Part shown: positions 19,667 to 64,000 of the stretch, piece by piece
How positions within the stretch are numbered: position 1 is the stretch's first letter
Layout of the letters: each line of letters opens with the position of its first letter
NCBI GenBank assembly: GCA_012729015.1
Contig: JAAYDY010000105.1
Span: 35,296-99,295 of the forward strand
DNA: 64,000 nt
Source of the DNA: Phycisphaerae bacterium
GTDB lineage: Bacteria; Planctomycetota; Phycisphaerae; FEN-1346; JAACEH01
Reading direction: 5' to 3'
Notes under the pieces: model-generated
What the model was told of the DNA's origin: nothing
Seen by the model: the letters and a program-made list of their open reading frames with translations, nothing else
The model's database searches: none
Program-made: the position numbers and the translations under genes

Positions 19667-19669
19667 AGC

Positions 19670-20761: not shown

Positions 20762-20763
20762 GG

Positions 20764-30594: not shown

Positions 30595-30610
30595 GTCAGA
30601 CCACTCCTCT

Positions 30611-37047: not shown

Positions 37048-37062
37048 AGTATGACTCCCGAC

Positions 37063-42916: not shown

Positions 42917-42940
42917 AGTCTGCTAAGGGGCGAACTGGCG

Positions 42941-43654: not shown

Positions 43655-43667
43655 GGGCTATTGTCAC

Positions 43668-44213
43668 ATGGCAAAAGCGAAAGTTGCAACGACCTCGCTG
43701 TGCGGCTGTTTCGGTTGCCACATGTCCCTCCTGGACATCGACGACCGGATTCTGAAGCTCGTGGAGTTAGTGGATTTCAACAAGTCGCCGATCAACGACA
43801 TCAAGGAATTCACTGAGCGATGCACGGTGGGCCTGATCGAGGGCGGCTGCTGCAACGAGGAGAACGTCCGGGTGCTTCGCGACTTCCGCAAGCATTGCGA
43901 CATTCTGATCTCGGTGGGCGACTGTGCGACGATGGGCGGCATTCCGGCCATGCGGAACACTATCCCGCTCAAGGAGTGCCTCGACGAAGCGTATCTGAAC
44001 GGCCCGACCGTGCATAACCCGAGCGGACAGATACCGAACGATCCCGAGATCCCGCTGCTGCTGAATCGCGTCTACCCGTGCCATGAGGTGGTGAAGATCG
44101 ACTACCACCTGCCTGGGTGCCCGCCGTCGGCCGACACGCTGTGGGAGGCCCTGGTGGCCCTACTGACCGATAAGCCCGTCGCGCTGCCGTACGAGCTGAT
44201 CAAGTACGACTGA
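43668..44213 (+). CDS. hoxY: [NiFe] hydrogenase small subunit, group 3 (HoxY)
   Basis: CGCFGCH, GDCATMGG, PGCPP motifs of short group-3 small subunits. Start at MAKAKV (ATG 43668). Confidence 0.85.
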   Translation: MAKAKVATTSLCGCFGCHMSLLDIDDRILKLVELVDFNKSPINDIKEFTERCTVGLIEGGCCNEENVRVLRDFRKHCDILISVGDCATMGGIPAMRNTIPLKECLDEAYLNGPTVHNPSGQIPNDPEIPLLLNRVYPCHEVVKIDYHLPGCPPSADTLWEALVALLTDKPVALPYELIKYD

Positions 44214-44237
44214 TCCCATGTTTTTGGAGCCCAACAC

Positions 44238-48384: not shown

Positions 48385-48773
48385 TGGAAGGCTTCGGCGG
48401 TGATGGCATCGAGAACCGCCTCCGCCACATCTCCATAACATGCATTCAACGGATCGGCCATGGCGTAACGGCGAACGCGCGCGGCCACGGACGGATGCAC
48501 CGGGGAGAACTCACCGCAGATTTGTCCGGCGTGCGGCAGCCTTGGCCGTATACGTTCGACTGGTGCCGCATCACGTGACATGGCGCCCCCTTGCAAGCCG
48601 CAGGATCATTCTCTTGAAGCCCCCTATCCAAAGCAAGACAAAACCATGCCTCGCCTGATGCAGAGTGAGGCAACGAGGGTGCGGCATGTTGTGGGCCGGA
48701 GCGGACAGCAGTACAATCGTCGTCTGCCGAGGGGGCGCGTTGCGGGCGATGGGATCCCGCCCCGGAGAAGACG

Positions 48774-50015: not shown

Positions 50016-52121
50016 ATGGCCGTGTGGGGCCATCCTCTACGAGGTCAGACGGTGGACGAACTGACGTCAGGCGAATTGAAGCGACTCGGTGACAGCCGCA
50101 TGCTGATGCAGCGGGAGTGGTCGCCGTGCAGATACCATTGCCCGGTGCATGCGGACGTGCGGTCGTACATCGAGTTGGCCGCGCGGGGTCGGTGGCGTGA
50201 GGCCATCGACGTGATCCGCGAACGTCTGCCATTTGCGTCCGTGTGCGGGCGCGTGTGCCATCATCCGTGCGAGGCCAACTGCCGTCGCGCGGGCGTGGAC
50301 GAAGCCGTGGCGATCCGCGAGGTGAAGCGGTTCGTGAGCGAGCAACAGGGCGCCTCGGGAGCAACGGTACGCCGCGTGGTACAGGACAAGGCGCCGGTGG
50401 CGATCGTCGGCGCAGGTCCTGCCGGCATGGCCGCGGCGCTCGATCTGGCGCTTCTGGGATATCGGCCGACGGTGTTTGAGAAGTTCGCCGTCGCAGGGGG
50501 CATACCGGCCACGGCCATTCCTCCGTATCGCCTGCCGCGCGACGTTCTTCAGCAGGACATCGACTGGATCTGCGCCCACGGGGTGACTGTGGTCACGGGC
50601 GTTGAGATCGGCAAGGACAAGACGCTCGCGGACCTGAAGAGCGAGGGCTTTGCAGCCATCGTGATTGCCACGGGCCTAGCGCTTTCGCGAACGTTGCCCA
50701 TTCCGGGCGCGAACCACGAGCGAGTCTATCCCGTGCTGGATTTCCTGACGGCGGTGTGCTCAGACAGGGCGCCCCGGATCGGCTCGGACGTCGTGGTGAT
50801 CGGCGGCGGCAACGTGGCGATGGACGCAGCGCGGACAGCGGTGCGGCTGGGTGCGACTCGCGTGCGGGCGATGTGCCTTGAGGCCGAGGACGAGATGCCG
50901 GCGTGGGACTGGGAGCGCAGCGAGGCGGCCGAGGAAGGCGTCGGGTTCATCCATCGCCGCGGACCGACCGATATCGTGATTCGCGACGGGCGGATCGTTG
51001 CGGTTGCGGCGCGGAAGGTCACTCGCGTGTTCGATGCCGACCACCGATTCGATCCGCGTTACGACGACGCCGATGTCGTGAGCGTGGAGTGCGACACGGT
51101 GATCATGGCGATCGGGCAGACGGCGGACATGGGATTTCTCGCCGGGAGCCCTCTGGCCAAGGATACCCGCGGACGCCTGACGTACGATTCGGCCACGCAC
51201 CAGACCAGCGATCCGTCAATCTTTGCGTGCGGCGAAATCGTAACCGCGCCGGGATCGGTTGTTGAGGCCTGCGCGTCGGGTCAGCGTGCGGCGAAGGGCG
51301 TGGACCTGTTCCTGAGCGGCAAGCCGATCCGGCTTGCCGACGCGCTGCCTCCGGTGATTGGCGAGATGGCCCCCGACACCGCGGCCAAGGTATCGAAGTC
51401 GCCGCGAAACGCTGTCCTGCAACGCGCAGCGGACGAACGCCGGCGCGATAGTCTGCCCATTGACGCGAACTTCACGGCGGATGCGGCCATGCACGAGGCA
51501 CAGCGCTGCATGGGGTGCGGCGGAGGCGCCGAGGTTCTGATCGACAAGTGCGCCGCGTGCCTGACGTGCCTCCGCGTGTGCCCGTTCGACATTCCGGTGG
51601 TGACGGACGTGGCGCGGATCGAGTCCTCGCTCTGCCAGGCGTGCGGTATGTGCATCGTTGAGTGCCCGGCCAACGCCATCGTGTCGCGAAGCTGGGACAC
51701 GCGGGAGGAGATCGGAAACACGGCCGCGCGGCTGGCCGGCGCGGGTGCCGGGCCGAAGGTGGTGGCCTACATCAACGGGTACCATGCCCCCGCGGCCGCA
51801 TGGGGCGCGTCGGCAGAGGATGCCTTGCCCGGCGTGCTGGAGGTCTGGCTGCCAAGCGTGAGCCGCCTGGGCGTGGCCGAGATGCTTCGCGCCATCGAGA
51901 ACGGGGCGGACGGGATCGTGGTGGTGGCGGGCTACCTGGGCGGCGACCGTTACCCCACGGTGCGCGAACGCATGGCTCGCCGCGTCGAACAGCTCCGGGC
52001 GATGCTGGGCGAAATCGGCATGAACCCCGAGCGTATTCAGCTGGTCCACTGTGCGGACGAGGGACGCGACGCGATGCGCCGGGCCATCGTCGAAGCAACG
52101 GGGAAGATTGCGGCATGTTGA
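50016..52121 (+). CDS. GltD/NfnB-like NAD(P)H flavin oxidoreductase fused to 2x[4Fe-4S] ferredoxin and a cysteine-less MvhD-like domain
   Basis: N-terminal Cys clusters (CRYHCPVHADV, CGRVCHHPCEANC). Two Rossmann GxGxxG motifs (VAIVGAGPAG, VVVIGGGNVA). CAACLTCLRVCP and CQACGMCIVECP. C-terminal region aligns to MvhD/FlpD but FCCNWC, MCSGR and GCHxGDCHY are replaced by YINGYH, LPSVSR and GYLGGDRY. Confidence 0.75.
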   Translation: MAVWGHPLRGQTVDELTSGELKRLGDSRMLMQREWSPCRYHCPVHADVRSYIELAARGRWREAIDVIRERLPFASVCGRVCHHPCEANCRRAGVDEAVAIREVKRFVSEQQGASGATVRRVVQDKAPVAIVGAGPAGMAAALDLALLGYRPTVFEKFAVAGGIPATAIPPYRLPRDVLQQDIDWICAHGVTVVTGVEIGKDKTLADLKSEGFAAIVIATGLALSRTLPIPGANHERVYPVLDFLTAVCSDRAPRIGSDVVVIGGGNVAMDAARTAVRLGATRVRAMCLEAEDEMPAWDWERSEAAEEGVGFIHRRGPTDIVIRDGRIVAVAARKVTRVFDADHRFDPRYDDADVVSVECDTVIMAIGQTADMGFLAGSPLAKDTRGRLTYDSATHQTSDPSIFACGEIVTAPGSVVEACASGQRAAKGVDLFLSGKPIRLADALPPVIGEMAPDTAAKVSKSPRNAVLQRAADERRRDSLPIDANFTADAAMHEAQRCMGCGGGAEVLIDKCAACLTCLRVCPFDIPVVTDVARIESSLCQACGMCIVECPANAIVSRSWDTREEIGNTAARLAGAGAGPKVVAYINGYHAPAAAWGASAEDALPGVLEVWLPSVSRLGVAEMLRAIENGADGIVVVAGYLGGDRYPTVRERMARRVEQLRAMLGEIGMNPERIQLVHCADEGRDAMRRAIVEATGKIAAC

Positions 52122-52170
52122 GACCGCGGACGTGCGGACGTCGGGCGCGCTGCGGCGGGAGAAGGCGTCA

Positions 52171-52860
52171 ATGATCGTAGCTGAACGCAAACCCATGGAC
52201 GAGATCGTCGCCATGCTGGCGCCGCACCGGAAGGTGCTGGTGCTGGGTTGCGGCGGGTGCGTGACGGTCTGCCTGACCGGCGGGGAGAAGCAGGCCGAGC
52301 TCCTGGCCGGGCAACTGCGACTGGCGGCGCGGCAGGCCGGCCGGACGCTGGAGGCCGCCTTTGACTGCATCACGCGACAGTGCGAGCGAGAGTTCTTCGA
52401 CAATCTCACGGAGGATCCTCGCACCTACGACGCCGTGCTCAGCATCGCCTGCGGCGCCGGCGTGCAGTACATGAGCGAACTGTACCCCGAGGTGCCGATT
52501 CTGCCGGGGATGAACACAACGTTTCTCGCCTCGAACGTGGCCGGCGGCGTCTGGGAGGAGTACTGTCGCGGCTGCGGCGACTGCGTGCTGGCGTGGACGG
52601 GCGGCATCTGCCCGATCACGCAATGCTCCAAGAGCCTGATCAACGGAACGTGCGGCGGCACGAACAACGGCAAGTGCGAGGTCAACCCGGAGATGGAGTG
52701 CGGGTGGCTGAGGATTTACGAACGGCTGAAGGCGCTCGGCCAACTGGACAACTACCGGACGCTTCGGGCGGCTCGCGACCATCGCAAGGACCGCGGCGGC
52801 GGCGTGAGGCGGCTTGTGCTCAAGGACATGGCCGAGAGCCAGGAGAGCGGCAATGAGTGA
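52171..52860 (+). CDS. metV: MetV-like Cys-rich small subunit of methylene-THF reductase (MTHFR C-terminal-like domain)
   Basis: Cys-rich motifs (LGCGGCVTVC, CRGCGDCV, GGICPITQC, CGGTNNGKCE). ATG 52171 preceded by GGGAGAAGG. Stop overlaps metF. Confidence 0.7.
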   Translation: MIVAERKPMDEIVAMLAPHRKVLVLGCGGCVTVCLTGGEKQAELLAGQLRLAARQAGRTLEAAFDCITRQCEREFFDNLTEDPRTYDAVLSIACGAGVQYMSELYPEVPILPGMNTTFLASNVAGGVWEEYCRGCGDCVLAWTGGICPITQCSKSLINGTCGGTNNGKCEVNPEMECGWLRIYERLKALGQLDNYRTLRAARDHRKDRGGGVRRLVLKDMAESQESGNE

Positions 52861-53761
52861 GCCCGTCAGCAAACTGGAGTCGGCCCTTCGTGCGGGCACA
52901 TTCGTTTTCACGGGCGAGATCGGCCCGCCGAAGGGCACGCATATCGAGCCTGTGATTCACGAGGCGGTCGCCAGCCTGAAAGGGCGATGCGCGGCGGTGA
53001 ACGTGACGGACATTCAGACGGCCGTCATGCGTGCCTCGTCCGTGGCCGGATGCAAGCTGCTGCTGGACGCAGGGGTGGAACCGGTGCTCCAGATGGTGTG
53101 CCGCGACCGCAACCGCCTGGCTCTCCAGAGCGACTTGCTCGGAGCACATATCCTGGGGATTCGCAATGTGCTGGCCCTGACCGGCGACCACACGACGCTG
53201 GGCGACCATCCGCAGTCCATGCCCGTGTACGATCTGGATTCGGTCGGCCTGCTTGAAGCCATCGTGCGCCTGGAGTCGGGCACGGACATGGGCCGGGACA
53301 TGAAAGGGAACCCCAATCAACTGGACGGATCGCCGCGGTTCTTCAAGGGGTGCTGCGTTACACCGTGCGCGGAGGTGGTGGACCCGCAGATCATCAAGCT
53401 CGAAAAGAAGGTGGCCGCGGGAGCGCAGTTCGTTCAGACGCAGGCAGTGTACGATCCGGCCGCCTTCGAGGCGTTCATGCGCAATGTGGAGTCGCTGAAG
53501 GTGCCGGTGCTGGTCGGCATTGTCATGTTGAAATCGGCGGCCATGGCGAAGTACATGAACCGGTCGGTGCCGGGCGTGGTGGTTCCCGAGTGGATCATCA
53601 CCCGACTGACCGAGGCGTCGAAGGAGGATCGGCAGAAGGTGTCGATCGAGATCTGCGGGCAACTGATCCGCCAGATGAAAAGCTGCTGCCAGGGGGCGCA
53701 CCTGATGACGCTGGGTTGGGACCACTGCGTTCCGGAGATCATCGCCGCGGCCGAGGCGTAA
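52853..53761 (+). CDS. metF: 5,10-methylenetetrahydrofolate reductase
   Basis: Full-length MetF TIM-barrel similarity (…FVFTGEIGPPKG…, LALTGDH, VGIVMLKS). ATG 52853 preceded by AGGAGA. Confidence 0.85.
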   Translation: MSEPVSKLESALRAGTFVFTGEIGPPKGTHIEPVIHEAVASLKGRCAAVNVTDIQTAVMRASSVAGCKLLLDAGVEPVLQMVCRDRNRLALQSDLLGAHILGIRNVLALTGDHTTLGDHPQSMPVYDLDSVGLLEAIVRLESGTDMGRDMKGNPNQLDGSPRFFKGCCVTPCAEVVDPQIIKLEKKVAAGAQFVQTQAVYDPAAFEAFMRNVESLKVPVLVGIVMLKSAAMAKYMNRSVPGVVVPEWIITRLTEASKEDRQKVSIEICGQLIRQMKSCCQGAHLMTLGWDHCVPEIIAAAEA

Positions 53762-54195: not shown

Positions 54196-55482
54196 TCACA
54201 CTCCCAGCACATCCGCATAGATCCGCAGAGTCGTCTCGGCCATCGTCCGCGAAGAGAAGTGCGTTTCGACGCCACGCGCCGCCGCGACGGACATATCGGT
54301 GAGACGGCGGCGGTCATCCGCCAGAGACACCAGGGCCGCCGCCAGCGATTCGGCACCGCAGGGGTCCACAAGCATCCCGCCTCCGGTTGATTCGACGATT
54401 TCCGCCAGGATGCCATTGCGAGGGGCAACCAGCACGGCGCCGCAGGCCATTGCCTCCAGCGCCGCCACGGCCCGGCGTTCCGGCTGCCGGCTCGGACGCA
54501 CAAACACGTCGAGGCTCTGAAACAGGTCGAGTTTCCCGCCGAACGTCACCTGTCCGCGGAAGGCGAAACCGTCGCGGTTCTGTTGCAGACCGGTCTCGTC
54601 CAGCACGGATTGCCACCAGCGACGGTCTGCCGGGGCGAGCTGTCCGGCGACGCTCAACCGCACCTGCCCCGGGCGCTCTCGATGGACGATGGCCGCCGCG
54701 CGGCACAGGATGTCCAGCCCCTTGGCCGGCGCAATGCGCGACAGGTATCCCACGTGGACTGGCCCACCTTCGCTGCGCACAGCCGGTCGGAACACGCCGA
54801 CATCGACGCCCGGGTGGACCACGCGAATGCGGTCTCGACCGACACCAAGAAACTCCGCGACTTCGTCGGCATAGCCGGCGGCCGGTGCGATGAACAGATC
54901 AATGTCCTCGGCGGCCAGGCGCACGAGGGCCATGGCTTCATCGCGAAAAGGCGGAGGCAGATCGCGAACGAACGCCTCCTCACCCTGGACCATGCAGACG
55001 ATCCGGCAGCCAAGCCGCTCGCGAATAGCGGGCGCCAGGCCGGCCAGCAGCGAGTTCGTCAGGTTCACGACGTCGGGACTCCCCTGCCCGTGCAGGTAAT
55101 CGAGCAACGCGCGAAGTTCCTTCGCCTGGCGGCCCTGGCTGCCGCGCAGCACGGAGACGGTCATCGCCCCCAGGTCCTCGGGCTGCGTGTCGATGGCCAA
55201 TCGGGAGACTGCCCGCAGGATCCACCGGCTGTCGAACAGCCTGTCGAGAAGTTTGGGCGTGTGTCGGAAGAGGGCGAACTTCTGCTGGAGCACGGCACTG
55301 ATGCCGCCGTAGAACACGCGACGGTCGCTGGGATCGGGCCCGTCAAGCCTCAGGGGCGTGTACAGAGGAAGCATCGTCACCTCGTGGCCGAGCGCGATGA
55401 GGCTGCGGGCCAGTGCGGCATCGCGGGCGCATGCGCCGCAATACTGCCCTGCCGCCCCGGCTGCGAGGTAGACAATCTTCAT
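54196..55482 (-). CDS. Glycosyltransferase family 4 (GT-B fold)
   Basis: Conserved GT4 C-terminal EX7E-type region (…ALEAMACGAVLVAPRNGILAEIVE…) and N-terminal donor-binding domain. Confidence 0.8.
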   Translation of the reverse strand: MKIVYLAAGAAGQYCGACARDAALARSLIALGHEVTMLPLYTPLRLDGPDPSDRRVFYGGISAVLQQKFALFRHTPKLLDRLFDSRWILRAVSRLAIDTQPEDLGAMTVSVLRGSQGRQAKELRALLDYLHGQGSPDVVNLTNSLLAGLAPAIRERLGCRIVCMVQGEEAFVRDLPPPFRDEAMALVRLAAEDIDLFIAPAAGYADEVAEFLGVGRDRIRVVHPGVDVGVFRPAVRSEGGPVHVGYLSRIAPAKGLDILCRAAAIVHRERPGQVRLSVAGQLAPADRRWWQSVLDETGLQQNRDGFAFRGQVTFGGKLDLFQSLDVFVRPSRQPERRAVAALEAMACGAVLVAPRNGILAEIVESTGGGMLVDPCGAESLAAALVSLADDRRRLTDMSVAAARGVETHFSSRTMAETTLRIYADVLGV

Positions 55483-55489
55483 GCCCGAC

Positions 55490-57145
55490 TCAGCCTCCGC
55501 TGTCTCGCAGGGCTCGCTTCAGGCTCAGGGCTCCGGTCGGACAATGCTCGACACATCGTCGCGCCGTGCGACGAAGCGCCTCGCTCAACTCCGACGAGAA
55601 CGGCGCCGCCGTGCGAACGCTGAAGCCGCGACCGATGAACGTGAGGCCGAGCGTTTCTCGATCCTGTTCGGCGATGCGCACGCACCGACCGCATTGGATG
55701 CACTTGCCCGACTCAAACACGATGTCAGGATGGGTGGCGTCGCGCTCGAAGGGCCGGCGAGGACCATGGTACCGCGTCGGCGACGCACCGTACCGAGCGG
55801 CCAATTGACGCAACGCACACGTATCGCGTTTGCCGCAGTCGCAATCGAGGCAGCGTCCGGCCTCAGCACGGACCTCTGTGTCGCTGGCCGTCGCGGCGGC
55901 CGCTGGATTGCCGGAATCGGGCATGCCCCGGGGACTAGGGTCGGCATGGGCACGCAGCACCGCTACCTCGTCGCCGCTGAGATCGCGCATGAGCACGTTG
56001 ACATGCGCGGGGTCTCCGACAACGTCCGCGCCTCGGAGAAACTGGTCCACGGCAACGGCGGCGCGGCGGCCGCTCGCCACGGCGTGAACGCCGTAATTCG
56101 GGCCGGTCACCACATTCCCGGCGGCAAAGACACCGGCGCGGCCCGTAGCCAGCGTCGCACGGTCCGCCTGCACACCTCGGCGTGAGGGCTGGAGGCCCAG
56201 GGCGTTGAGCAGCGAGAAGTCGTACCGCACCTCGCCGCCGGCCAGGCGTCCCTCGGCATAGAAGGCCGCCTGGTCCATCGCGGTCTGGGTGCCGATGGCT
56301 AGGACGACGGCATTGTGGCGAGCGAGAAGGTCGTCCAGGCTGACATCTCGCCCGAGGCGAACGCCGGATCGCAGCTGCACGCCGAGGCCCAGAATCGCAG
56401 CAATTTCGGCGTCAAGCACGTCGCGCGGCAGCCGCCGGGCGTCGATGCCGCAGCGATACAGCCCACCGGCCTGTGGCTGCGCCTCGTACAGCGTGCAGGC
56501 GTGACCCATCTGTCGGAGGTAGTATGCGGCAGAAAGGCCCGCAGGCCCGGCGCCGACCACGGCGACGCTCTTGCCCGACTCGGTCGCACCATCGGGCCTG
56601 TGTGGATCGCTGGAAGCGAGATCCTTGTCGGCCACCCAGCGGTGCAGGTCGCGAATGTTGACGGCTTCGTCCAGTTCCTTGCGCCGACATGCTCGCTCGC
56701 AGAATCGTGGACACACGCGGCCCAGGGATGCCGGCAGGGGAAGCCGCCGCCTGACGATGCCGGCTGCGCGGCGGTTGTCACCGGCCACGATGGCAGCGAC
56801 GAAGTCGGCCACCTTGAGGTGGGCGGGGCACGCCAAAGAGCATGGGGCTACGCAGTCGCCCGGGTGGTCACTGAGAAGAAGTTCCAGAGCGGTACGACGG
56901 GCTCGCATCACGACGTCGGACTGCGTCCGCACCACCATCCCCTCGGCCACAGGCATGGCGCACGACGGTTTCAGACCGGCCTGCCCTTCGATTTCGACAA
57001 CGCACATGAAGCAGGACGTGTGCGGCTGGAGACCGTCGAGGTGACACAACGTGGGAATGTCGATGCCGAGGCGGCGCGCGGCTTCGAGAACGGTCGTCCC
57101 CGGAGGCACATCTATGCTGCGATTGTCGATGGTCAGTCTCGGCAC
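55490..57145 (-). CDS. HydA-N-terminal-like Fe-S domain (2Fe-2S plus His-ligated 4Fe-4S) fused to NfnB/GltD-like NADPH-FAD oxidoreductase (StnC-like)
   Basis: N-terminal plant-type 2Fe-2S (CHLDGLQPHTSCFMCVV), HPGDCVAPCSLACP, CPRFCERAC. GxGxxG (VAVVGAGPAGL). C-terminal CIQCGRCV cluster. No H-cluster motifs. GTG start overlaps the upstream stop. Confidence 0.75.
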   Translation of the reverse strand: MPRLTIDNRSIDVPPGTTVLEAARRLGIDIPTLCHLDGLQPHTSCFMCVVEIEGQAGLKPSCAMPVAEGMVVRTQSDVVMRARRTALELLLSDHPGDCVAPCSLACPAHLKVADFVAAIVAGDNRRAAGIVRRRLPLPASLGRVCPRFCERACRRKELDEAVNIRDLHRWVADKDLASSDPHRPDGATESGKSVAVVGAGPAGLSAAYYLRQMGHACTLYEAQPQAGGLYRCGIDARRLPRDVLDAEIAAILGLGVQLRSGVRLGRDVSLDDLLARHNAVVLAIGTQTAMDQAAFYAEGRLAGGEVRYDFSLLNALGLQPSRRGVQADRATLATGRAGVFAAGNVVTGPNYGVHAVASGRRAAVAVDQFLRGADVVGDPAHVNVLMRDLSGDEVAVLRAHADPSPRGMPDSGNPAAAATASDTEVRAEAGRCLDCDCGKRDTCALRQLAARYGASPTRYHGPRRPFERDATHPDIVFESGKCIQCGRCVRIAEQDRETLGLTFIGRGFSVRTAAPFSSELSEALRRTARRCVEHCPTGALSLKRALRDSGG

Positions 57146-57151: not shown

Positions 57152-58993
57152 TCACTCCACCACAATGGCGTCTGCCGGGCATCCGGCCTTGCACATGCCG
57201 CAACGGATACACTTCTCGGCGTCGATTGTGTGCTGCTCGTAAGGTGTCGGTTGAATGGCCTGGACCGGGCATCGCTGGGCACAGCGCGTGCAGCCGATGC
57301 ACGTGTCCGTGACACGATAGGCAATAAGGGCTTTGCATTTGCGTGCCGGGCAGCGGCCCTGGAGATGGGCCTCGTACTCGTCGCGGAAGTAGCGCAGCGT
57401 CGTCAGCACCGGATTCGGCGCCGTCCGCCCCAGCCCGCAGAGGCTGGTGTGTCGCACCTGGTCGCACAGCATCTCCAGATCGTCCAGATCCTCGGGGTGC
57501 CCCTTGCCATCGCACAGCCGCTCGAGGATGTCAAGCATGCGCCGCGTGCCAACGCGGCAGAACGTACACTTGCCGCAGGACTCCTTCTCGGTGAACTCGA
57601 GGAAGAACCGGGCGATGTCCACCATGCAGTCTGAATCATCGAGCACGACAAGGCCGCCGGACCCCATGATGGCGCCAGTGCGGGTGAGCGCCTCGTAGTC
57701 GATAGGCAGGTCGGCCATGGAGGCCGGAATGCAGCCACCCGAAGGCCCGCCGATCTGGACGGCCTTGAAGCGACGTCCCTCGTGCATGCCGCCGCCGATG
57801 TTCTCGACCACGTCGCGAATCGTCGTGCCCATAGGAACTTCGATGAGGCCGCCCCGCCGGATGCGGCCGGCCAGGGCGAACACCTTGGTTCCTTTGCTGC
57901 GCTCGGTGCCGATGGCCGCAAAGGCGGCGGACCCATGGCGCACGATCCACGGCACACAGGCGAACGTCTCGACGTTGTTGACGCTCGTGGGCTTGCCCCA
58001 CAGGCCGCTCTCGGCGGGATAGGGCGGACGGAATCGCGGCATGCCGCGGCGGCCCATGATGGAGGCCATCAGGGCTGTCTCCTCGCCACAGACAAACGCC
58101 CCGGCCCCTTCCATGACATGGAGCCGCAGCGAGAACCCCGTCCCAAGAATACCCTGTCCAAGGTATCCGGCCCGCTCGGCCTGGGCGATCGCCTCGCGGA
58201 GCACTCGGACGGCCAGCGGGTACTCGGCGCGAATGTAGATGTAACCTTCAGCGGCGCCGATAGCGTAGGCGGCAATGGCCATGCCCTCGATGACCCGTTG
58301 CGGGTCGCTTTCGAGGACGAGCCGGTCCATGAACGCTCCGGGGTCGCCCTCGTCGGCGTTGCAGACGACGTAGCGCGTCGAGTCCTGCTGACTCCGGGCG
58401 GTGGCCCACTTCAGGCCGGTCGGATACCCGCCGCCACCGCGGCCGCGCAAGCCGGACTGGGTGACGGCGTCGATCACCTGCTGCGGCGTCATGTCGGCAA
58501 CGCACCGCCGCAGGGCCGCATACCCTCCGCGGGCCAGGTACTCGTCGATACACAGCGGGTCGATCTGGCCGCAGTTCTCGAGGACGATGAGTTTCTGTTC
58601 GCCGGCTTGTCCGGCTTCCGTCGCGGACTCTGGATGGGCCGCAAATGGCTTGACCGACACCCACGCCTCGTCCGACAGCAGCAGGTCCGCCATGCGGCCC
58701 GCCCAGGCCATGGCTTTGCCCACCATGCCCCTGGGCGTCACGCAGTCGCGCACGATGCGGCGCGCCTCGGCCGGCCTCACGCCGCCGAACACTTGGCGAC
58801 GGCCGTCCGTGGAAACCACTTCGACGATGGGCTCCTGGTGGCACAGGCCGCTGCATCCGACGGCCTTCACCGGAACGTGCAGACCATGGCGACGGGCGGC
58901 CTCATGCACGGCTTCATGCACCGGCCGTCCGCCGCTGGCGATGCCGCAGGTGGCCAGGCCGACACGAATCTCCTTGACGTTGTGATCGCTCAT
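57152..58993 (-). CDS. NuoF-like NADH-binding flavoprotein subunit (second copy)
   Basis: GRGGGGYPTGLKW, CNADEGDPGAF, ESCGKCTFCR. N-terminal thioredoxin-like 2Fe-2S and C-terminal 2x[4Fe-4S]. Confidence 0.85.
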   Translation of the reverse strand: MSDHNVKEIRVGLATCGIASGGRPVHEAVHEAARRHGLHVPVKAVGCSGLCHQEPIVEVVSTDGRRQVFGGVRPAEARRIVRDCVTPRGMVGKAMAWAGRMADLLLSDEAWVSVKPFAAHPESATEAGQAGEQKLIVLENCGQIDPLCIDEYLARGGYAALRRCVADMTPQQVIDAVTQSGLRGRGGGGYPTGLKWATARSQQDSTRYVVCNADEGDPGAFMDRLVLESDPQRVIEGMAIAAYAIGAAEGYIYIRAEYPLAVRVLREAIAQAERAGYLGQGILGTGFSLRLHVMEGAGAFVCGEETALMASIMGRRGMPRFRPPYPAESGLWGKPTSVNNVETFACVPWIVRHGSAAFAAIGTERSKGTKVFALAGRIRRGGLIEVPMGTTIRDVVENIGGGMHEGRRFKAVQIGGPSGGCIPASMADLPIDYEALTRTGAIMGSGGLVVLDDSDCMVDIARFFLEFTEKESCGKCTFCRVGTRRMLDILERLCDGKGHPEDLDDLEMLCDQVRHTSLCGLGRTAPNPVLTTLRYFRDEYEAHLQGRCPARKCKALIAYRVTDTCIGCTRCAQRCPVQAIQPTPYEQHTIDAEKCIRCGMCKAGCPADAIVVE

Positions 58994-59499
58994 CGGCCCG
59001 ACTCCTTCCGCACCTTGTCGATGATCATGGTGGCCTTGTGCGGCGTGAGCTTGCCGTAGGTCACATCGTCAATCGTCATGCACGGCGCCAGCGAGCAGCA
59101 GCCGAGGCAAGGGACCTTCTCGATGGTGAAGAGCCGGTCGGCGTCGGTGTCTTCGTGGTCGTCGTCGATGCCCAGGTGGCGGCGGAGCGCCTCGGTAATC
59201 AGCGGTGCCCCGGCCACGTGACAGGCGGTGCCGTGACAGACGCGAACCATGTGCCGGCCGACAGGCTTGTGACGGAACTGGCTATAAAACGTCGAGACGC
59301 CGGCGATCTGAGCCGCCGTAATCTCCGTCGTACGGCAGACGTGCTCCAGGGCCTCTTGCGGCAGATATCGGAAATGCGACTGAATCGCCTGAAGAATCGG
59401 TATCGCTGCGTCGGCGGTCGTCCCCGTCCGGCGCACAATATTGTCCACCGCCGCCAGGTCGATCGGCTCGTCCACGGGTTGTCGTTTCGCCTTGGTCAT
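58990..59499 (-). CDS. NuoE-like 2Fe-2S subunit (second copy)
   Basis: VCHGTACHVAG…CLGCCSLAP thioredoxin-like ferredoxin. 4-nt overlap with the downstream NuoF-like gene. Confidence 0.85.
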   Translation of the reverse strand: MTKAKRQPVDEPIDLAAVDNIVRRTGTTADAAIPILQAIQSHFRYLPQEALEHVCRTTEITAAQIAGVSTFYSQFRHKPVGRHMVRVCHGTACHVAGAPLITEALRRHLGIDDDHEDTDADRLFTIEKVPCLGCCSLAPCMTIDDVTYGKLTPHKATMIIDKVRKESGR

Positions 59500-59511: not shown

Positions 59512-61707
59512 TCACTTGCCGATGCAGAACAGCCTTTTCTCGCCGCGAATGAGAATCCGGCCCCCGACAAACGCCGGTGACGCGTGTGTCCTCTCTCCCA
59601 CCTTGCACGTGCTTTTGAGCGCAAAGACATCCGCGAAGTCGAAGAGGAACATGTCGCCCTCGAGGCTGGGCAGGTACACCGTGTCTCCGACCAACGACGG
59701 TGACGGAGTCATGGACGTCTGGAAGTCGTGCTGCCAGAGAATCCTGCCGTCGGTGGCCCCATAGCAGACCGCCGCCCCGTAGTTGTGGACGTGAAGATAG
59801 CGATGCTCGTCGGCCAGCGGACTGACGATGTTCGGCAGGTCCGTCTGGTCCTTCCAGAGAACATGGGTTTCCGTCACGTCGCCGGCACCCCCTGCCCTGA
59901 TGGCCGCCACGCGGCTGTACTCGTTGGCTACGAAGACGACGCCGCCTGCGACCACCGGACTCGGACCGACCTCGCCGTCGATGACAGCGGCTCGCCACAG
60001 TTCGGCTCCGGTGGCCGGGGCATACGCGATGACGAGCGGCGCAGCCGCTGTGATCAGTTCGTCCCGGTCGCCGACCCGGGCGATGACGGGCGTGCTCCAT
60101 GCGGAGCGCACCGGCCGCACCGTCTCCCAGATCACGCGTCCCGTGGAGGTGTCCATGGCCAGGATGGACGACTTCTCCTCGGTCGGTTCGATGCCCTGGT
60201 CAAACTGAAGAATGACCGTGTTCCTGTACGGAACCAGCGACGAGGCCAGTCCGTAGGGAGTGTCGGGCTCGCCGAGATTGATGGACCACTTCTGCCTGCC
60301 GTCGTGACCGACGGCGGCGACATCGGCGTTGGCGAACGTCACGTAGACGCCGCGGGCATCCACGGCTGCCGTCGGAGCGGCCAGGCCGGTGTCGGGAAAC
60401 GCCTCCACCTTCTTGCCGGCCATGGGACTGTTGGGCGGAGACTTGACCTGCGTTCTCCACAGCACGCTTCCGTCGAGGAGGCTGAAGCAGTGAAGCCAAT
60501 TGCGGTCGGCGTCGGCACTGGTCAGGTAGACGTGGTCGCCCCAGACCACGGGCGAACTGTTGCCGTCGGCGGGGATGCCCTTGTCGGGGTCGCCGATGGG
60601 AACCGCCCAGAGAATTCCGTTGCCGGTCGCGGCGTCCCATTCCGTGGGCCACTGGCCGTCGGGAACAAGGCCGCAGCCCGTGGGTCCGCGGAATCGCGGC
60701 CACGTGAGCGTGACGGCGGCGGGATCCTCCCCGGCGCCGTCGGCGCTCCCAGCGTCGCTCGACAGCCGGACCGTCGGGACGACGAGAGCCATGGCCACCG
60801 CGGCCGCGGCGAGCACGCCGGCGCCATAGGTCACGGCACGCGAGTTTCTACGGGCCACGACCTCCCAGTCGGGCTCTTCCGCACCGGCGTCCAGCGGCGG
60901 CCCCGCCGGTCCATGGCCAAGCCAGACATACCCGTGGAAACAGACGACCGCAAGCACCACGCCCGCCAGCAGCAACCACCGCCCGACGGCCATCTGCCGG
61001 CCGCGAGCGAAGAAGTCACGCCGAAGGGCGGCATCCTCGTTGCGAATGGCCTCCATGACGAGTTCGTCATCGGGCGACTCGACGAGCTGTCGCTGAAGAT
61101 CGGCCATGCGAGGCGGATTCTGCCAGAGGAGATCGTAGGCCGAGGTGTAGTTGCGCAACATCGTGGCCAGGATGATCGCCGAGAACGTAGCGGCCAGAAT
61201 GCCCAGGGACATAAGCATGGGACGCATCAGCGGCGCGGAAGGACGTCGGCGCACGCCGGCGGCCCATCGGGACAGGCCAGACATCCCGCGAGCCCACCAT
61301 GTGGCCCCTTGCTTCCATGCCAGGTGCTCGCGAGGACAGGCCGCGAAGCATCGTCCGCAACTGACGCACATCCCTCGTTCGATCTGGAACCCCTTGTGCA
61401 GCGGCACACGTGCCATGGCCGCCGCCTTCAGCGCCGCCACCACGCCGCACCAGAATCCGAGCAGGGCGCAGCCGATACGGAACCGCCGGACGATGGCCGT
61501 GGCCTCGTTTCGCAACAGCTCTTCGTCACCTCCCTGCATGCGAAAGGCGCGCACCTCGAACGTGTCGGCGGCTTCGGGCGTCGCCGACGCCGGACCGAGG
61601 ACCAGCTCGGCCAAGGCCACCGTGCGGTGGCTGCGCGCGGGCACGTGGCCGGCCATCCAGCCCGCTGCTGCCAGCACCAGCGGCAACGCCGCCAGAAGAA
61701 TTCGCAT
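59512..61707 (-). CDS. Membrane-anchored protein with a 4Fe-4S ferredoxin motif and a C-terminal PQQ/BamB-type beta-propeller domain
   Basis: TM helices flank CVSCGRCFAACP. The C-terminal ~400 aa has repeated hydrophobic-Y/W-G motifs typical of PQQ-like propellers (…HVYLTSADADRNWLHCFSLLDGSVLWR…). Start uncertain (ORF extends to 61770). Confidence 0.55.
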   Translation of the reverse strand: MRILLAALPLVLAAAGWMAGHVPARSHRTVALAELVLGPASATPEAADTFEVRAFRMQGGDEELLRNEATAIVRRFRIGCALLGFWCGVVAALKAAAMARVPLHKGFQIERGMCVSCGRCFAACPREHLAWKQGATWWARGMSGLSRWAAGVRRRPSAPLMRPMLMSLGILAATFSAIILATMLRNYTSAYDLLWQNPPRMADLQRQLVESPDDELVMEAIRNEDAALRRDFFARGRQMAVGRWLLLAGVVLAVVCFHGYVWLGHGPAGPPLDAGAEEPDWEVVARRNSRAVTYGAGVLAAAAVAMALVVPTVRLSSDAGSADGAGEDPAAVTLTWPRFRGPTGCGLVPDGQWPTEWDAATGNGILWAVPIGDPDKGIPADGNSSPVVWGDHVYLTSADADRNWLHCFSLLDGSVLWRTQVKSPPNSPMAGKKVEAFPDTGLAAPTAAVDARGVYVTFANADVAAVGHDGRQKWSINLGEPDTPYGLASSLVPYRNTVILQFDQGIEPTEEKSSILAMDTSTGRVIWETVRPVRSAWSTPVIARVGDRDELITAAAPLVIAYAPATGAELWRAAVIDGEVGPSPVVAGGVVFVANEYSRVAAIRAGGAGDVTETHVLWKDQTDLPNIVSPLADEHRYLHVHNYGAAVCYGATDGRILWQHDFQTSMTPSPSLVGDTVYLPSLEGDMFLFDFADVFALKSTCKVGERTHASPAFVGGRILIRGEKRLFCIGK

Positions 61708-61721
61708 GACCCTCTTCACGA

Positions 61722-62579
61722 TCACGCGTCCTCCTCGGTCGTAGCCGGGCGGATCGCCCCGAACGGACACGCGTCTTCACAGAGGCGGCAGTTCACGCAC
61801 TCGTCGGGCGTGATGGTCACGTGCTTCCAGGCCACGCGACTGCACAAGCCGAGGAGTGCCCCGTACGGGCACAGGAACCGGCAGTAGGGACGTCCCACGA
61901 ATGTGGAGACGATCAACAGAACGCCGCCGAGGATCATGACCGGGAGATTGCCGTCGAGCCGGAAGAAACCGACGAAGGGGTCCCAGCGACACACGATGAA
62001 GAAACTGTCGGTGGCGGCCATGAGGATGGCCGCGCCGAGGTAGACGAAGGGGACCAGGCCCAGGACCGACTGGAGCCACAGGGGCACGCGCAGCGGCCGG
62101 ATGAGGACCAGATCCTGGATGGCCCCGAGCGGACACACGCCGCTGCAGAACACCCGGCCGAAGAGCAAGGCGAAGACAACGGGCAGCGCGAAGATGAACA
62201 CCACGGAGACCGGCAGCGTGTAATCGGCGTCGGCCAGCGCGAGCGTTACGTTCTGAATCGAGCCGATCGGGCACACGCAACCCCCGAGATAGAAGCCGAA
62301 GTAGACGAGCGACGCCACGGCCAGCCAGCGGATCGCGGTGCGGCTTCGCAGGCGCAGAGAGAACCATGTGCTGAGGGCGAGCCCGGTCGCCAGTGCGGCC
62401 ACGTGGACCCTATCCATCCACGGCGGCAACCGCAACGGCCGCTGGTCGAGCTCGGGCAACTGGTGCCCCGAGTAGAAGTCCGGCGGCGGAAACCGCTCGA
62501 TGGCCCACGCATCGGCGGCGCACACAGCCGCCGCCAGCAGCGCCATCGCCACCAGGACAACGCGTCGGCGAGAGCTCAT
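61722..62579 (-). CDS. NapH/MauN-type membrane polyferredoxin
   Basis: TM-embedded GGCVCPIGS and CSGVCPLGA (Cx3CP) motifs plus a C-terminal 2x[4Fe-4S] (CRFLCPYGA, CVNCRLCEDACP). ATG 62579 preceded by GGAGG. Confidence 0.7.
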   Translation of the reverse strand: MSSRRRVVLVAMALLAAAVCAADAWAIERFPPPDFYSGHQLPELDQRPLRLPPWMDRVHVAALATGLALSTWFSLRLRSRTAIRWLAVASLVYFGFYLGGCVCPIGSIQNVTLALADADYTLPVSVVFIFALPVVFALLFGRVFCSGVCPLGAIQDLVLIRPLRVPLWLQSVLGLVPFVYLGAAILMAATDSFFIVCRWDPFVGFFRLDGNLPVMILGGVLLIVSTFVGRPYCRFLCPYGALLGLCSRVAWKHVTITPDECVNCRLCEDACPFGAIRPATTEEDA

Positions 62580-63163
62580 CCGCCCTCCTTCTGCCGTCCG
62601 AGATGCTTGACGACATACGGGCGGTCGGCCGGTACGCGCATGAAGGCGTCGGACGGGCACTGGGCCGCGATGGCGCACTGGTTGCAGTTCAGACAGCGGT
62701 CCTGGCGCACCTGGAGGTAGAGCGATCCGTTGCCGTAGTCGGTGCAGCCCTTGACGCAGATGCCACAACCGGTACACAGCAACTCGTCGATGTGGTACTC
62801 GAAGTACGGTTCCTCGACGAAGCGGCGGATGATGGCGCCTGCCGGGCATAGTTGGTTCTCGGCCCCGGTCTCCAGCCTGTTGGGCTCTGGATGGAAGAAG
62901 CCGGTACACAGGTCGCAGTAGCCGCACATGGCGAAATCGTGTACGCACTTGACCGCCGAGTCTTCGAGGACACATGCCGTGCGACAGTTCCCGCACTGGA
63001 TGCACTTGAAGGGATCGATCTGCCAGAGGTCGTCCTTGGCGCGGACCCTGCCGGCTGCGGCAACACCGACGCCGGCAACGCCGACGCCGAGCAGGCCGCG
63101 AGCGATACCGCCGAGGAACCCGCGGCGCGTCAGGGCCGGATTGGCTGTGCGATCGTCGCTCAT
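62576..63163 (-). CDS. NapG-like periplasmic ferredoxin with Tat signal (4x[4Fe-4S])
   Basis: Twin-arginine motif TRRGFLGG. Four Cys clusters (CIQCGNCRTAC, CGYCDLC, CTGCGICVKGC, CLNCNQCAIAAQC). ATGA overlap with the downstream gene. Confidence 0.7.
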   Translation of the reverse strand: MSDDRTANPALTRRGFLGGIARGLLGVGVAGVGVAAAGRVRAKDDLWQIDPFKCIQCGNCRTACVLEDSAVKCVHDFAMCGYCDLCTGFFHPEPNRLETGAENQLCPAGAIIRRFVEEPYFEYHIDELLCTGCGICVKGCTDYGNGSLYLQVRQDRCLNCNQCAIAAQCPSDAFMRVPADRPYVVKHLGRQKEGG

Positions 63164-63507
63164 CAGTTGGCCATCCTGCCGTTCGGACCGGCGTCGAAGG
63201 CGCGACGTCCCTGGTCGCACAGGGCGTCCCGTAGCCCGGCCTCGCCGTACCGGGACCTGCGGACCGGAGTCACCAGACCCAGGCCCCTGCTCCGCTGTTG
63301 TTCGGCCTCGGGCAGGCGGCACGACTCGAACGCTCCGCAACGAGTGCACCGTGCCGTCGCCGGTCCGCCGGCCATCGGCCGCCGCAGGCCACGAGCGACC
63401 AGCCGCACCGCCGCAGCCCCGATCAGGGCCAGACCCGTCCAACGGGCCGCGCTGACCAGCACGTCGCGCCGCGTGAGCCTACGGAAGATGCCGCGAGGAG
63501 CCGTCAT
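63163..63507 (-). CDS. Small hypothetical protein with possible Tat-like signal
   Basis: RRLTRRDVLVSAARWTGLALIGAAA N-terminus. Stop overlaps the NapG-like start. Weak support. Confidence 0.2.
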   Translation of the reverse strand: MTAPRGIFRRLTRRDVLVSAARWTGLALIGAAAVRLVARGLRRPMAGGPATARCTRCGAFESCRLPEAEQQRSRGLGLVTPVRRSRYGEAGLRDALCDQGRRAFDAGPNGRMAN

Positions 63508-64000
63508 CCTTCCTCCGCCATACGCTCGAACACAAGCACCGCCCCCTGCGCCGGATCGACCACGAACACTCGGCCTCCTGCGTCAACGGCCAGGTCCATG
63601 CCGGCGCTGGCCGGGGCGAAGAACTCCGTGCCGATGATCCCCAGGGCCTGCCCCTGGCGGTCGCTGACTTTGACGCGCGGCGACCGGCCCTTTTCGGCAG
63701 TGACGACGTAACCGTCGGCCGACAGTGCCAGGTTCGTCGGGTTGCAGCACCCGGGGAACCGGTTCGGCGCCGTCCCTTGCCCGCCCCAGTACCCAAGGCG
63801 CTCGCCGCCGCGGCTGTAGCGCTCGACGCGCCAATAGCCAGGATTTGTGATCATCACCTCGCCGTCCGTGCCTGCGGCCACATCCATGTACGGACTGGGA
63901 CAGAGAATCCGCGGCTGCCCCGTCGTCTCGTCCCGACCGGCAATGCTGTCCACCAGGTCGCCCGTCACGTCGAAATGGTGCAAGGCACGATTCCCAGCGT
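63504..64000 (-). CDS. NHL-repeat / six-bladed beta-propeller protein (partial, start beyond window end)
   Basis: Repeated …DGxVYVxDxxNxRVxxF-like blades. ORF is open to the window edge. Confidence 0.4.
   Translation of the reverse strand, partial: AGNRALHHFDVTGDLVDSIAGRDETTGQPRILCPSPYMDVAAGTDGEVMITNPGYWRVERYSRGGERLGYWGGQGTAPNRFPGCCNPTNLALSADGYVVTAEKGRSPRVKVSDRQGQALGIIGTEFFAPASAGMDLAVDAGGRVFVVDPAQGAVLVFERMAEEG

Follow-up and report, generated by a model that had tools for sequence, protein, structure and literature searches.

A widespread gene cluster of uncultured bacteria that may link an Nfn/Bfu-like NAD(P)H module to NapH-like and periplasmic propeller proteins

Iron-sulfur (Fe-S) proteins of the NapH/NosR type serve nitrate, nitrous oxide and organohalide reductases, and both their electron donor (quinol or a cytoplasmic reductant) and the way in which electrons cross the membrane are debated. 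In the nitrous oxide reductase (Nos) system, a membrane Fe-S protein with the Fer4_5 domain serves a periplasmic beta-propeller protein, and we know of no established donor to its cytoplasmic Fe-S domain. NapH-like proteins are viewed as modular transmembrane electron conduits for extracytosolic oxidoreductases, and the surveyed systems include NosR-NosZ, PceC-PceA and clusters with NirS or with the pyrroloquinoline quinone (PQQ) alcohol dehydrogenase ExaA (Meheust et al. 2021, PMC8238504). A gene cluster found in a 64,000-nucleotide (nt) stretch of DNA from a Phycisphaerae bacterium (assembly GCA_012729015.1, contig JAAYDY010000105.1, positions 35,296 to 99,295; hereafter the window) is a widespread, uncharacterised relative of these systems; no description of it was found in the literature searched, including the Bfu classification, a Hydrogenedentota paper and the survey of flavinylation. 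Judged by curated model thresholds, its proteins are not NapG, NapH, NosR, BamB or a PQQ dehydrogenase. The reading that we put forward tentatively, giving it somewhat less than an even chance, is that the cluster supports NAD(P)H-fed, Fe-S-based electron export to a periplasmic thiol-based reductase and is not a quinol dehydrogenase.

The cluster lies in a run of nine same-direction genes on the minus strand (64000 to 54196), in which neighbours overlap or are separated by at most 14 nt. This run was analysed by hydropathy, Pfam and NCBIfam scans, Foldseek, hhalign and tblastn/BLASTP searches. The third-position GC content of the nine genes is 0.76-0.88, in a sequence with 67% GC overall, so that the nine open reading frames (ORFs) are taken to be real genes. 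Genes three to five of the run (59512-63163) are the trio flagged in the original prediction, namely a ferredoxin with four [4Fe-4S] motifs and a twin-arginine translocation (Tat) signal, a NapH-like polyferredoxin coupled to it, and, 14 nt downstream, a 731-amino-acid (aa) protein with transmembrane (TM) helices, the ferredoxin motif CVSCGRCFAACP and a PQQ/BamB-like propeller. Positions, strand and these features were all borne out, by the sequence motifs and an ATGA overlap in the case of the ferredoxin and the NapH-like protein, and by hydropathy and a PQQ_2 match of 84 bits in the case of the 731-aa protein. The prediction did not mention the NuoE-, NuoF- and GltD-like genes that start 12 nt further downstream.

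A profile of the 731-aa protein, searched against one genome per GTDB species, yielded at least 559 confirmed relatives, of which the best 80 were inspected. All of these 80 are metagenome-assembled genomes (MAGs), and they represent at least eight phyla (Planctomycetota, Verrucomicrobiota, Chloroflexota, Hydrogenedentota, Poribacteria, Omnitrophota, Armatimonadota and Aegiribacteria), the carriers belonging to Phycisphaerae, Sedimentisphaerales, Pirellulales and Brocadiia among Planctomycetota and to Anaerolineales among Chloroflexota. The cluster comprises 9-14 genes in an order that is shared, with few departures, by 80/80 of these MAGs and that runs from [PQQ_2 propeller a-glycosyltransferase of family 4 (GT4)-ATP-binding cassette (ABC) protein-FtsX]-PQQ_2 propeller b-NHL propeller-small protein-ferredoxin through NapH-like protein-Fe-S hairpin/propeller-NuoE-NuoF-GltD-fusion-[more propellers]. 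Counted over the loci with enough flanking sequence to be informative, the NapH-like gene is adjacent to the propeller gene in 59/60 cases and the ferredoxin gene lies upstream in 58/60; the NHL gene is found upstream in 49 of the 53 loci, propeller b in 39 of 45, NuoF within 2.5 kb downstream in 61 of 68, the GltD-fusion in 51 of 57, and FtsX in 20 of 36. The start and stop codons of the NuoF gene often overlap those of its neighbours, or else a NuoE-NuoF fusion directly follows the propeller gene. All-against-all clustering of the ORFs from 86 loci revealed no further conserved family and no heme, molybdopterin, copper or flavinylation component; what it gave otherwise were antisense artefacts. 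Such artefacts recur across loci as long ORFs on the strand opposite the genes for NHL/propeller and NuoF proteins (e.g., 6270-7997, minus strand, in locus L005); they group into apparent families, which merely mirror conserved high-GC coding sequence. Near-identical clusters have been binned either as Anaerolineaceae (L007, with 86% identity, and P0006) or as Planctomycetes (P0003), and this disagreement among the depositors of close relatives suggests either that binning or taxonomy is inconsistent or that the cluster has been transferred laterally.

The module encoded by the downstream genes has counterparts of solved structure. The NuoE-like gene (58990..59499), which begins 12 nt past the gene for the 731-aa protein, encodes a thioredoxin-like [2Fe-2S] subunit similar to BfuC (Pfam 2Fe-2S_thioredx, 157.7 bits). 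The NuoF-like, BfuB-like FMN/NAD(H) subunit (57152..58993) aligns over its full length with NfnB (residues 5-611 with residues 3-593 of 9n5u_B; 757 bits, E 1.7e-226) and matches also the B subunits 9bov_B and 8oh5_B. It is extended at its N-terminus and has a 2x[4Fe-4S] domain at its C-terminus (Pfam Complex1_51K, NADH_4Fe-4S and Fer4_21), the two features that set Bfu enzymes apart from complex I (PMC9304861). The third gene (55490..57145) encodes a 551-aa fusion of a NuoG-like N-terminus with GltD-like and Fer4_Nqo3 regions, that is, a short BfuA/NfnA-like protein; its N-terminal portion of about 300 residues scores 371, 353 and 332 bits against 9bov_A, NfnA (9n5u_A) and 8oh5_C, respectively. 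This GltD-fusion contains GltD-type Fe-S and FAD/NAD(P) domains and, compared with the 963-1178 aa of the solved A subunits, lacks the C-terminal part. At the sequence level, the three proteins together resemble the solved NfnABC/StnABC (Bfu) electron-bifurcating transhydrogenases, with which they share the NuoF-like/NfnB subunit, the NuoE-like subunit and the gene order C-B-A; the GltD-fusion, with its NuoG-type N-terminus and GltD-like domain, is a possible equivalent of the A subunit. In published work, NfnABC takes electrons from NADPH and passes them to NAD+ and ferredoxin (PMC11829005, PMC12018979, PMC9304861). The cluster differs from NfnABC/StnABC in the short A-like subunit, in the location of the genes within an operon for membrane and periplasmic proteins, and in a TM hairpin that is attached to NuoE in a variant described below, and the ferredoxin domain of the membrane protein may take the place of soluble ferredoxin as the partner of the module.

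The putative conduit is the 285-aa polytopic membrane Fe-S protein of the NapH/NosR type (61722..62579), whose start codon overlaps the stop codon of the ferredoxin gene. It matches Fer4_5 (PF12801) in two stretches with 57.5 bits, against a threshold of 22. Its CX3CP motifs (C145/C149 and C233/C237) align with those of Escherichia coli NapH and Ruegeria NosR and are 96-97% conserved among 79 NapH-like orthologues; placed within TM helices by the original prediction, they instead directly follow the helices, at the predicted boundary between membrane and cytoplasm. The description of the pair as NapG/NapH-like holds for the layout and the CX3CP motifs, whereas the family scores identify both proteins as only distant relatives of NapG and NapH: the ferredoxin scores 15.5 bits against a cutoff of 269 in the NapG model (NF007012) and only 26 bits in a BLASTP comparison with E. 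coli NapG, and the membrane protein scores 40.7 against 213.05 and 39.9 against 234 in the NapH models (TIGR02163 and NF007013, respectively). E. coli NapH is 28% identical to the membrane protein over 165 aa, and the best named relatives in tblastn searches are the membrane/Fe-S halves of NosR/NirI (28-31% identity, 79-87% query coverage); the NosR model (NF046105) covers the same half only, with 45.6 bits against a cutoff of 1000.

Thus, the cluster shares with NapGH adjacent, coupled genes for a Tat-exported four-cluster ferredoxin and a polytopic Fer4_5 protein, the latter with two CX3CP motifs and cytoplasmic ferredoxin motifs. The homology is distant, and napA, napB and napC (or mau) are missing from the window and from the 80 loci. 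The differences include an additional N-terminal signal/TM segment and an outer-side cysteine triad in the membrane protein, the relocation of the second ferredoxin motif to the next protein, and the NAD(P)H module encoded in the operon. With NosR/NirI-NosZ, the cluster has in common the Fer4_5 membrane Fe-S protein with its homologous polytopic core, CX3CP motifs and a cytoplasmic ferredoxin motif; in contrast to that system, it is devoid of the periplasmic FMN-binding domain, ApbE, nosZ, nosDFYL and the copper site of the propeller. The NapH-like flavinylated systems likewise combine a PF12801 conduit with extracytosolic partners, some of which are PQQ-type propellers, but their defining feature, an FMN domain flavinylated by ApbE, is replaced in the cluster by the Tat polyferredoxin (PMC8238504). 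The FMN_bind domain was not detected in the NapH-like protein, nor was FMN_bind or ApbE found in any other protein of the cluster; in addition, the propellers are not ExaA, and a cytoplasmic Bfu-type module is added.

The additional triad consists of C101, C103 and C197 (motifs GCxCPxGxxQN and CxxDPF), is at least 95% conserved in the family, is missing from E. coli NapH and Ruegeria NosR in the alignment, and is predicted, from hydropathy and the positive-inside rule, to be located on the outer, periplasmic side of the membrane. Cys73 of the ferredoxin was considered as an obligatory ligand completing this triad and was dropped, given that it is replaced by alanine in 6/69 loci in which the triad is still intact. 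The C-terminus of the NapH-like protein contains a single CxxCxxCxxxCP motif (C261-C271) where NapH has two, and the homologue of the second motif is CVSCGRCFAACP of the 731-aa protein, located behind a TM hairpin.

This 731-aa protein (59512..61707) was delineated by its PQQ_2 match, hydropathy and a structural model of a homologue. Its ATG is located 14 nt past the stop codon of the NapH-like gene; an alternative GTG start at 61725 overlaps that stop codon, and gene callers use the GTG for homologues with 98% and 86% identity (737 and 735 aa, respectively). Five TM helices are predicted by hydropathy, and the layout is TM1-loop-TM2, the loop with CVSCGRCFAACP (residues 114-125, positions 61333-61368), TM3, a helical hairpin, TM4, TM5 and the propeller (about 59515-60702). 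The TM2-TM3 loop that contains the motif is strongly basic (12 lysines and arginines against 2 aspartates and glutamates), and under the positive-inside rule it is predicted to be cytoplasmic, with the helical hairpin, in which R222, D225 and R229 are invariant, and the propeller on the periplasmic side.

Several relatives with a different partition of these domains link the NapH-like protein to the 731-aa protein. P0010 from locus L003 (1066 aa) contains the NapH-like region, the Fe-S hairpin and the propeller in one chain; in L005, L091 and P0023-25, the Fe-S hairpin forms the C-terminus of a long NapH-like protein, and in L004 it is a separate protein of 141 aa. In alignments, the motif that follows the hairpin corresponds to the second of the ferredoxin motifs in E. 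coli NapH and, in the 731-aa protein, to C114-C124. These fusions and splits suggest that a single ferredoxin domain is divided between the NapH-like protein and the 731-aa protein. The earlier claim that the ferredoxin, the polyferredoxin and the propeller protein form one system is therefore upheld by gene coupling, by the synteny of the two Fe-S genes (59/60 and 58/60 loci) and by the P0010 fusion.

A reduced variant of the cluster, found in L088 (a MAG labelled Acidobacteria) and L089, consists of propeller b, the NHL propeller, the ferredoxin, the NapH-like protein, NuoE, NuoF and the GltD-fusion; the anchored propeller is missing, and the two ferredoxin motifs of the NapH-like protein are contiguous. 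The ABC/FtsX pair was not found in this variant. Here the NAD(P)H module is tethered to the membrane, with NuoE carrying an N-terminal TM-helix-TM extension; a profile comparison by hhalign (94% probability, E 1e-7, 112 columns) identifies this extension as homologous to the hairpin that TM3, a helix and TM4 form in the 731-aa protein. A BLASTP comparison of the TM3-TM4 region with the extension of L088 NuoE gave no match, and because of the TM-rich composition, the hairpin homology is moderate, not strong, evidence. Taken together, the fusions and splits suggest that the NAD(P)H module is seated on the membrane complex. The original prediction had further proposed that the 731-aa propeller protein could be a periplasmic redox partner or a substrate-binding module. 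The reduced variant dispenses with this protein, so that the anchored propeller is unlikely to be an essential catalytic partner and is better regarded as an accessory than as the core catalytic unit.

The propeller of the 731-aa protein is itself not diagnostic of a known enzyme. In the homologue P0010 (37% identical), it was modelled with a predicted local distance difference test (pLDDT) score of 85-95. A Foldseek search with this eight-bladed P0010 propeller returns only BamB among the top matches (TM-score, TMt, 0.70-0.78; 18-20% identity), followed by PQQ alcohol dehydrogenases and tetrathionate hydrolase. The 731-aa protein resembles BamB in having an eight-bladed PQQ_2-type propeller, for which BamB is the closest solved fold, and differs from it in having five TM helices and an Fe-S motif instead of a lipid anchor and in being encoded near redox genes instead of BAM genes; its N-terminus is polytopic, and no lipobox was found in it. 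The identification of the propeller as a PQQ enzyme or a true BamB was rejected on the basis of the family scores, which for the 731-aa protein are 53.7 bits against 285.2 (TIGR03300) and 33.3 against 423 (NF008351) in the BamB equivalog models and 28.4 against a cutoff of 480.05 in the PQQ-dehydrogenase model TIGR03075. No conserved cofactor-binding signature or His-rich copper site was found in the propellers among the orthologues.

On the periplasmic side, the predicted electron carrier is the NapG-like ferredoxin (195 aa; 62576..63163), which has the Tat signal and the four [4Fe-4S] binding motifs (CxxCxxC...C(P)) that make up the NapG layout. Its twin-arginine motif, TRRGFLG, is encoded at 63110-63130; among 69 orthologues, the two arginines are 96% conserved and 16-17 cysteines are 90-100% conserved, the 16 cysteines of the four motifs at 97-100%. 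No other protein of the cluster is as well conserved; 5,911 clusters at 90% identity were recovered at E<=1e-10, the database names of which are merely ‘ferredoxin’ or ‘RnfB’. Upstream, a small gene (63163..63507; third-position GC 0.81), the start and stop of which overlap both neighbours, encodes a 114-aa protein with a twin-arginine-like RRDVL motif, a hydrophobic stretch, a C-x2-C-x5-C-x-LP motif and a fourth cysteine 33 residues further on. Pfam and NCBIfam scans of this protein gave no match. An ORF in the same position is present in 38 loci, with the RR motif in 38/38 and the cysteine motif in 34/38; the usual form of the latter is C-x5-6-C-x2-C-x5-C (32/38 copies), whereas the copy in the window has C-x2-C-x5-C and the distant fourth cysteine. 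The usual form may resemble the single-cluster loop of endonuclease III. In L077 (about 2710-3716), the small RR/Cys4 module forms the N-terminus of the NHL protein. That the small Tat-motif ORF and the NHL gene belong to the same system, which had been suggested as a possibility, is thus supported by this fusion together with the conservation of the NHL gene (49/53 loci) and of the two motifs of the small protein.

The first gene of the run (63504..64000) encodes the C-terminal part of a six-bladed NHL-type propeller, its 5' end being located beyond the window; translation from 63998 yields AGNRALHHFDV, in agreement with the full-length orthologue of 319 aa in L001. The window copy contains the motif F-P-G-C-C-N-P, with the two cysteine codons at 63744-63749, and both F-x-G-C-C-N-P and the nearby T-x-E-K-G-x3-R-x-K are invariant in 59 orthologues and 19 reduced-form members. 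A homologue was modelled with six blades and a pLDDT of 92, and the best Foldseek matches of the model are NHL domains (TM-score of about 0.83); the search with this model returned generic NHL domains only (TRIM2/3, Brat), which offer no functional lead. The secondary-structure string of the model, as distinct from its coordinates, suggests that the cysteine pair resides in a long loop before the innermost strand of blade 5. Given that this loop face is where propellers usually hold the active site, the NHL protein is the most likely redox-active end point. The NHL orthologues are extracytoplasmic as judged by a TM anchor, a lipobox or an RR signal of their own; the twin-arginine-type signal is seen in L042, L045, L049, L050, L061, L075 and L082, and Tat export hints that the protein is exported folded, or together with a partner or cofactor.

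Gene content, coupling, synteny, fusions and conservation, together with the predicted topology, folds and family relationships, suggest that the components form one electron-transfer machine, of which the flagged trio would be the central, membrane-spanning part. We infer complex formation, the direction of flow, the ligation of the clusters, the role of the Cys-Cys pair and the nature of the substrate from these data. Under the NAD(P)H-fed export model, the cytoplasmic Nfn/Bfu-type module (the NuoE-, NuoF- and NuoG/GltD-like proteins) would oxidise NAD(P)H and dock on a cytoplasmic 2x[4Fe-4S] domain, to which, in this organism, the NapH-like protein contributes its C-terminus and the 731-aa protein its TM2-TM3 loop. 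Electrons would then cross the membrane through the NapH-like protein, via a cluster bound by the inner CX3CP motifs and then via the outer cysteine triad, to be taken up by the Tat-exported 4x[4Fe-4S] ferredoxin and possibly also by the small Tat-motif cysteine protein. They would end on the membrane-anchored periplasmic propellers, most likely on the Cys-Cys pair of the NHL protein, which would be a thiol/disulfide-based reductase with a substrate that is probably anionic or contains sulfur or a metal; the BamB-like propellers, among them that of the 731-aa protein, would lack a cofactor and act as scaffolds or in substrate capture. If the module bifurcates in the manner of NfnABC, oxidation of NADPH with NAD+ as co-acceptor would send electrons of unusually low potential to the periplasm. 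A functional analogy, without homology to the cluster, is provided by DsbD/CcdA: DsbD works by a thiol-disulfide cascade from thioredoxin, and the cluster might likewise deliver NAD(P)H reducing power to periplasmic thiols, provided that electrons end on the NHL Cys-Cys pair, using an Fe-S chain instead. A narrower version of this proposal is possible but less likely than not, namely that the cluster encodes a new class of heme-free and flavinylation-free periplasmic reductase in which a bifurcating module is attached to a NapH/NosR-like protein. The oxidation of NADPH, with NAD+ as the outlet of high potential, would drive low-potential electrons over the membrane, the chain would consist of Fe-S clusters only, and the Cys-Cys pair of a cofactor-less NHL propeller would reduce an external substrate, for example polysulfide, another sulfur species, a metalloid or a disulfide.

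Several observations weigh against the export model. The relatives come from uncultured organisms throughout, the members of the cluster are known here from sequence and prediction alone, and the direction of electron flow cannot be read from such data. An adjacent cysteine pair is not proof of redox catalysis. The NHL proteins of the reduced variant (L088 10001-10822; L089 904-1740) lack a signal peptide, TM anchor and lipobox, and the small ORF is missing, the NHL gene abutting the gene for the Tat ferredoxin; a periplasmic placing in this variant accordingly requires Tat hitch-hiking, and both hitch-hiking and a cytoplasmic location are possible. The cysteine triad provides three ligands only, and ferredoxin C73, the obvious candidate for a fourth, is an alanine in the 6/69 loci noted above. 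In the AlphaFold2 model of the fusion P0010, the membrane part is poor (pLDDT 33-70), and for this reason the cluster geometry and the trans-membrane relay of the proposal are only predicted. About 10% of the loci (L013, L031, L037, L069, L075 and L082) are without NuoE/F directly downstream; alternative donor genes were looked for beside the cluster in these loci, and none were seen. Finally, the NapH-like protein may contain a quinone site.

This last point leads to an unlikely alternative, the one raised in the original prediction, in which a NapGH-type quinol dehydrogenase feeds the propellers, and NuoE, NuoF and the GltD-fusion form an independent soluble transhydrogenase whose genes simply lie in the same operon. 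The CX3CP motifs and the membrane core are indeed homologous to those of E. coli NapH (the 28% identity noted above), NapG's Tat signal and four-cluster layout are both seen in the ferredoxin, the loci lacking adjacent NuoE/F would be accommodated, and some NapH-like systems probably take their electrons from a quinol (PMC8238504). Nevertheless, the NapH and NapG scores are far under the cutoffs, NuoF is encoded nearby in 61/68 loci from at least eight phyla, often with overlapping or fused genes, NuoE of the reduced variant is extended by a TM hairpin homologous to part of the 731-aa protein, and it is not evident what purpose a cytoplasmic ferredoxin domain on the membrane protein would serve in a pure quinol dehydrogenase. 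Quinol feeding is therefore less likely than a supply from the Nfn/Bfu-like module of the same operon.

Electrons might also flow inwards, a periplasmic NHL or PQQ-like propeller oxidising an external low-potential donor, the ferredoxin and the NapH-like protein relaying the electrons, and the Bfu-type module reducing NAD(P)+, possibly by confurcation; we consider this improbable. NapH-like systems do occur with periplasmic oxidases such as ExaA (PMC8238504), Bfu enzymes are reversible (PMC9304861), and an anaerobe that cycles H2 could benefit from the import of reductant. Against these points, the propellers fail the PQQ-dehydrogenase model and display no conserved cofactor signature; NAD(P)+ reduction needs a donor near or below -320 mV; and a hydrogenase or formate dehydrogenase for such donors was not found in the cluster.

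Less probable still is a machine for envelope biogenesis or maintenance of the BamB/Lol type, with the Fe-S proteins acting as a redox sensor or regulator. The evidence that favours it comprises the BamB fold of the closest solved propellers (TMt 0.70-0.78), the ABC protein, which scores best to LolD (243 bits), and the recurrence of GT4 and ABC/FtsX genes in the cluster; FtsX-type permeases are mechanotransmitters. However, the BamB score of the 731-aa protein is only 53.7 against 285, its N-terminus is polytopic and not a lipoprotein signal, ABC/FtsX genes occur in just 20/36 informative loci and are missing from the reduced variant, and at least eight Fe-S clusters plus a flavoenzyme far exceed the needs of a sensor. 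Coincidental adjacency of two or three unrelated operons is effectively refuted by the order shared across the best 80 distant genomes and by independent fusions across the supposed boundaries.

The last gene of the run in the window (54196..55482), assigned by its family match, encodes a GT4 glycosyltransferase and is an accessory member of the cluster; in many relatives, GT4 is found inside the cluster at a position other than that in the window. Comparison with glycosyltransferases for low-molecular-weight thiols yielded generic matches only (MshA, 75 bits against 462; BshA, 49 against 274). Close relatives (86% identity; L001, L002 and L007) encode, beyond the point equivalent to position 64000, two membrane-anchored PQQ_2 propellers and the ABC/FtsX pair, and relatives that reach 10 kb on each side contain only propellers, the ABC/FtsX pair, GT4 and the NuoE/F/GltD genes. 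The FtsX-type permease is very large (1142-1163 aa, duplicated, ADOP type; 981-4409 in L001/L002, 665-4156 in L004, 782-4273 in L006), shows a faint MacB_PCD match in L004 and L006, and pairs with a LolD/MacB-like ATPase. The original prediction had noted that the window lacks a catalytic gene such as those of Nap, Nos or Mau systems, which family scans of the window confirm, and had left room for a conventional catalytic gene just beyond position 64000; none was found there in the loci of the relatives.

Outside the cluster, the window is rich in genes of hydrogen and one-carbon metabolism. A membrane hydrogenase (Mbh/Ech) or complex-I-like module is encoded at 660-8033 on the minus strand (Oxidored_q6, Complex1_49kDa and two Proton_antipo_M domains). 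The minus-strand stretches 29170-31813 and 35326-39030 encode two radical S-adenosylmethionine proteins resembling the maturases HydG and HydE, along with HydA-like (35326-37047) and HydB-like (37063-39030) proteins, which suggest a second, hydrogenase-type Bfu system. A minus-strand gene at 33294-35336 encodes an [FeFe]-hydrogenase-like domain (Fe_hyd_lg_C, Fer4, FeS) fused to HisKA/HATPase_c; this protein looks like a sensory hydrogenase-histidine kinase, and its gene adjoins that of a response-regulator/kinase hybrid (31671-32834). On the plus strand, genes for a NuoE-NuoF fusion, for an Fe-S protein like HoxU and for the large subunit of a [NiFe] hydrogenase (41105-45677) suggest a Hox-type bidirectional hydrogenase. 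Also on the plus strand, at 50016-53761, MetV (DUF5981) and MetF come after an HdrA/GltD-like flavoprotein that ends in an MvhD/FlpD domain, and together they make up an acetogen-style methylene-tetrahydrofolate reductase set. This set is convergent with the cluster, a cupin gene ending 7 nt from the stop codon of GT4, and the same neighbours are present in L001/L002. The hydrogenases, MetF/MetV and the HdrA/MvhD-like protein thus indicate a hydrogen-cycling anaerobe with several other Bfu-type enzymes, and it follows that the Nfn-like module of the cluster is not simply the only transhydrogenase of the cell. Genes of the type II secretion/type IV pilus kind (T2SSF, T2SSE, secretin), interspersed with three ORFs of 305-509 aa without a Pfam match, occupy 14370-26374 on the minus strand, and a 539-aa ORF (46822-48441, minus strand) with coding-like composition has no Pfam match at E<=1e-5.

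With regard to the donor of NapH/NosR-type proteins, the cluster encodes a candidate on the cytoplasmic side, the NfnABC-like NAD(P)H enzyme, in the same operon as the membrane protein, which provides a concrete and testable model of donor coupling; in some genomes, the donor is on a polypeptide with a membrane hairpin homologous to that of the 731-aa protein. At least 80 species-level genomes, which fall into eight or more phyla, have the full cluster, with at least 559 candidates overall, and its products have been annotated merely as ‘ferredoxin’, ‘RnfB’ or ‘BamB’. If a periplasmic reductase is what the cluster encodes, anaerobic sediments, digesters and groundwater would contain an electron sink that has gone unaccounted for, and the NHL propeller with its vicinal cysteines would, if its proposed role is correct, represent a new kind of terminal redox protein. 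Should the narrower and less likely version of the proposal, with a bifurcating module attached to the NapH/NosR-like protein, prove true, the cytoplasmic ferredoxin domain would be the electron entry port for the whole NapH/NosR family, and the system would be widespread in uncultured bacteria of the Planctomycetota-Verrucomicrobiota-Chlamydiota (PVC) group, Chloroflexota and Acidobacteriota.

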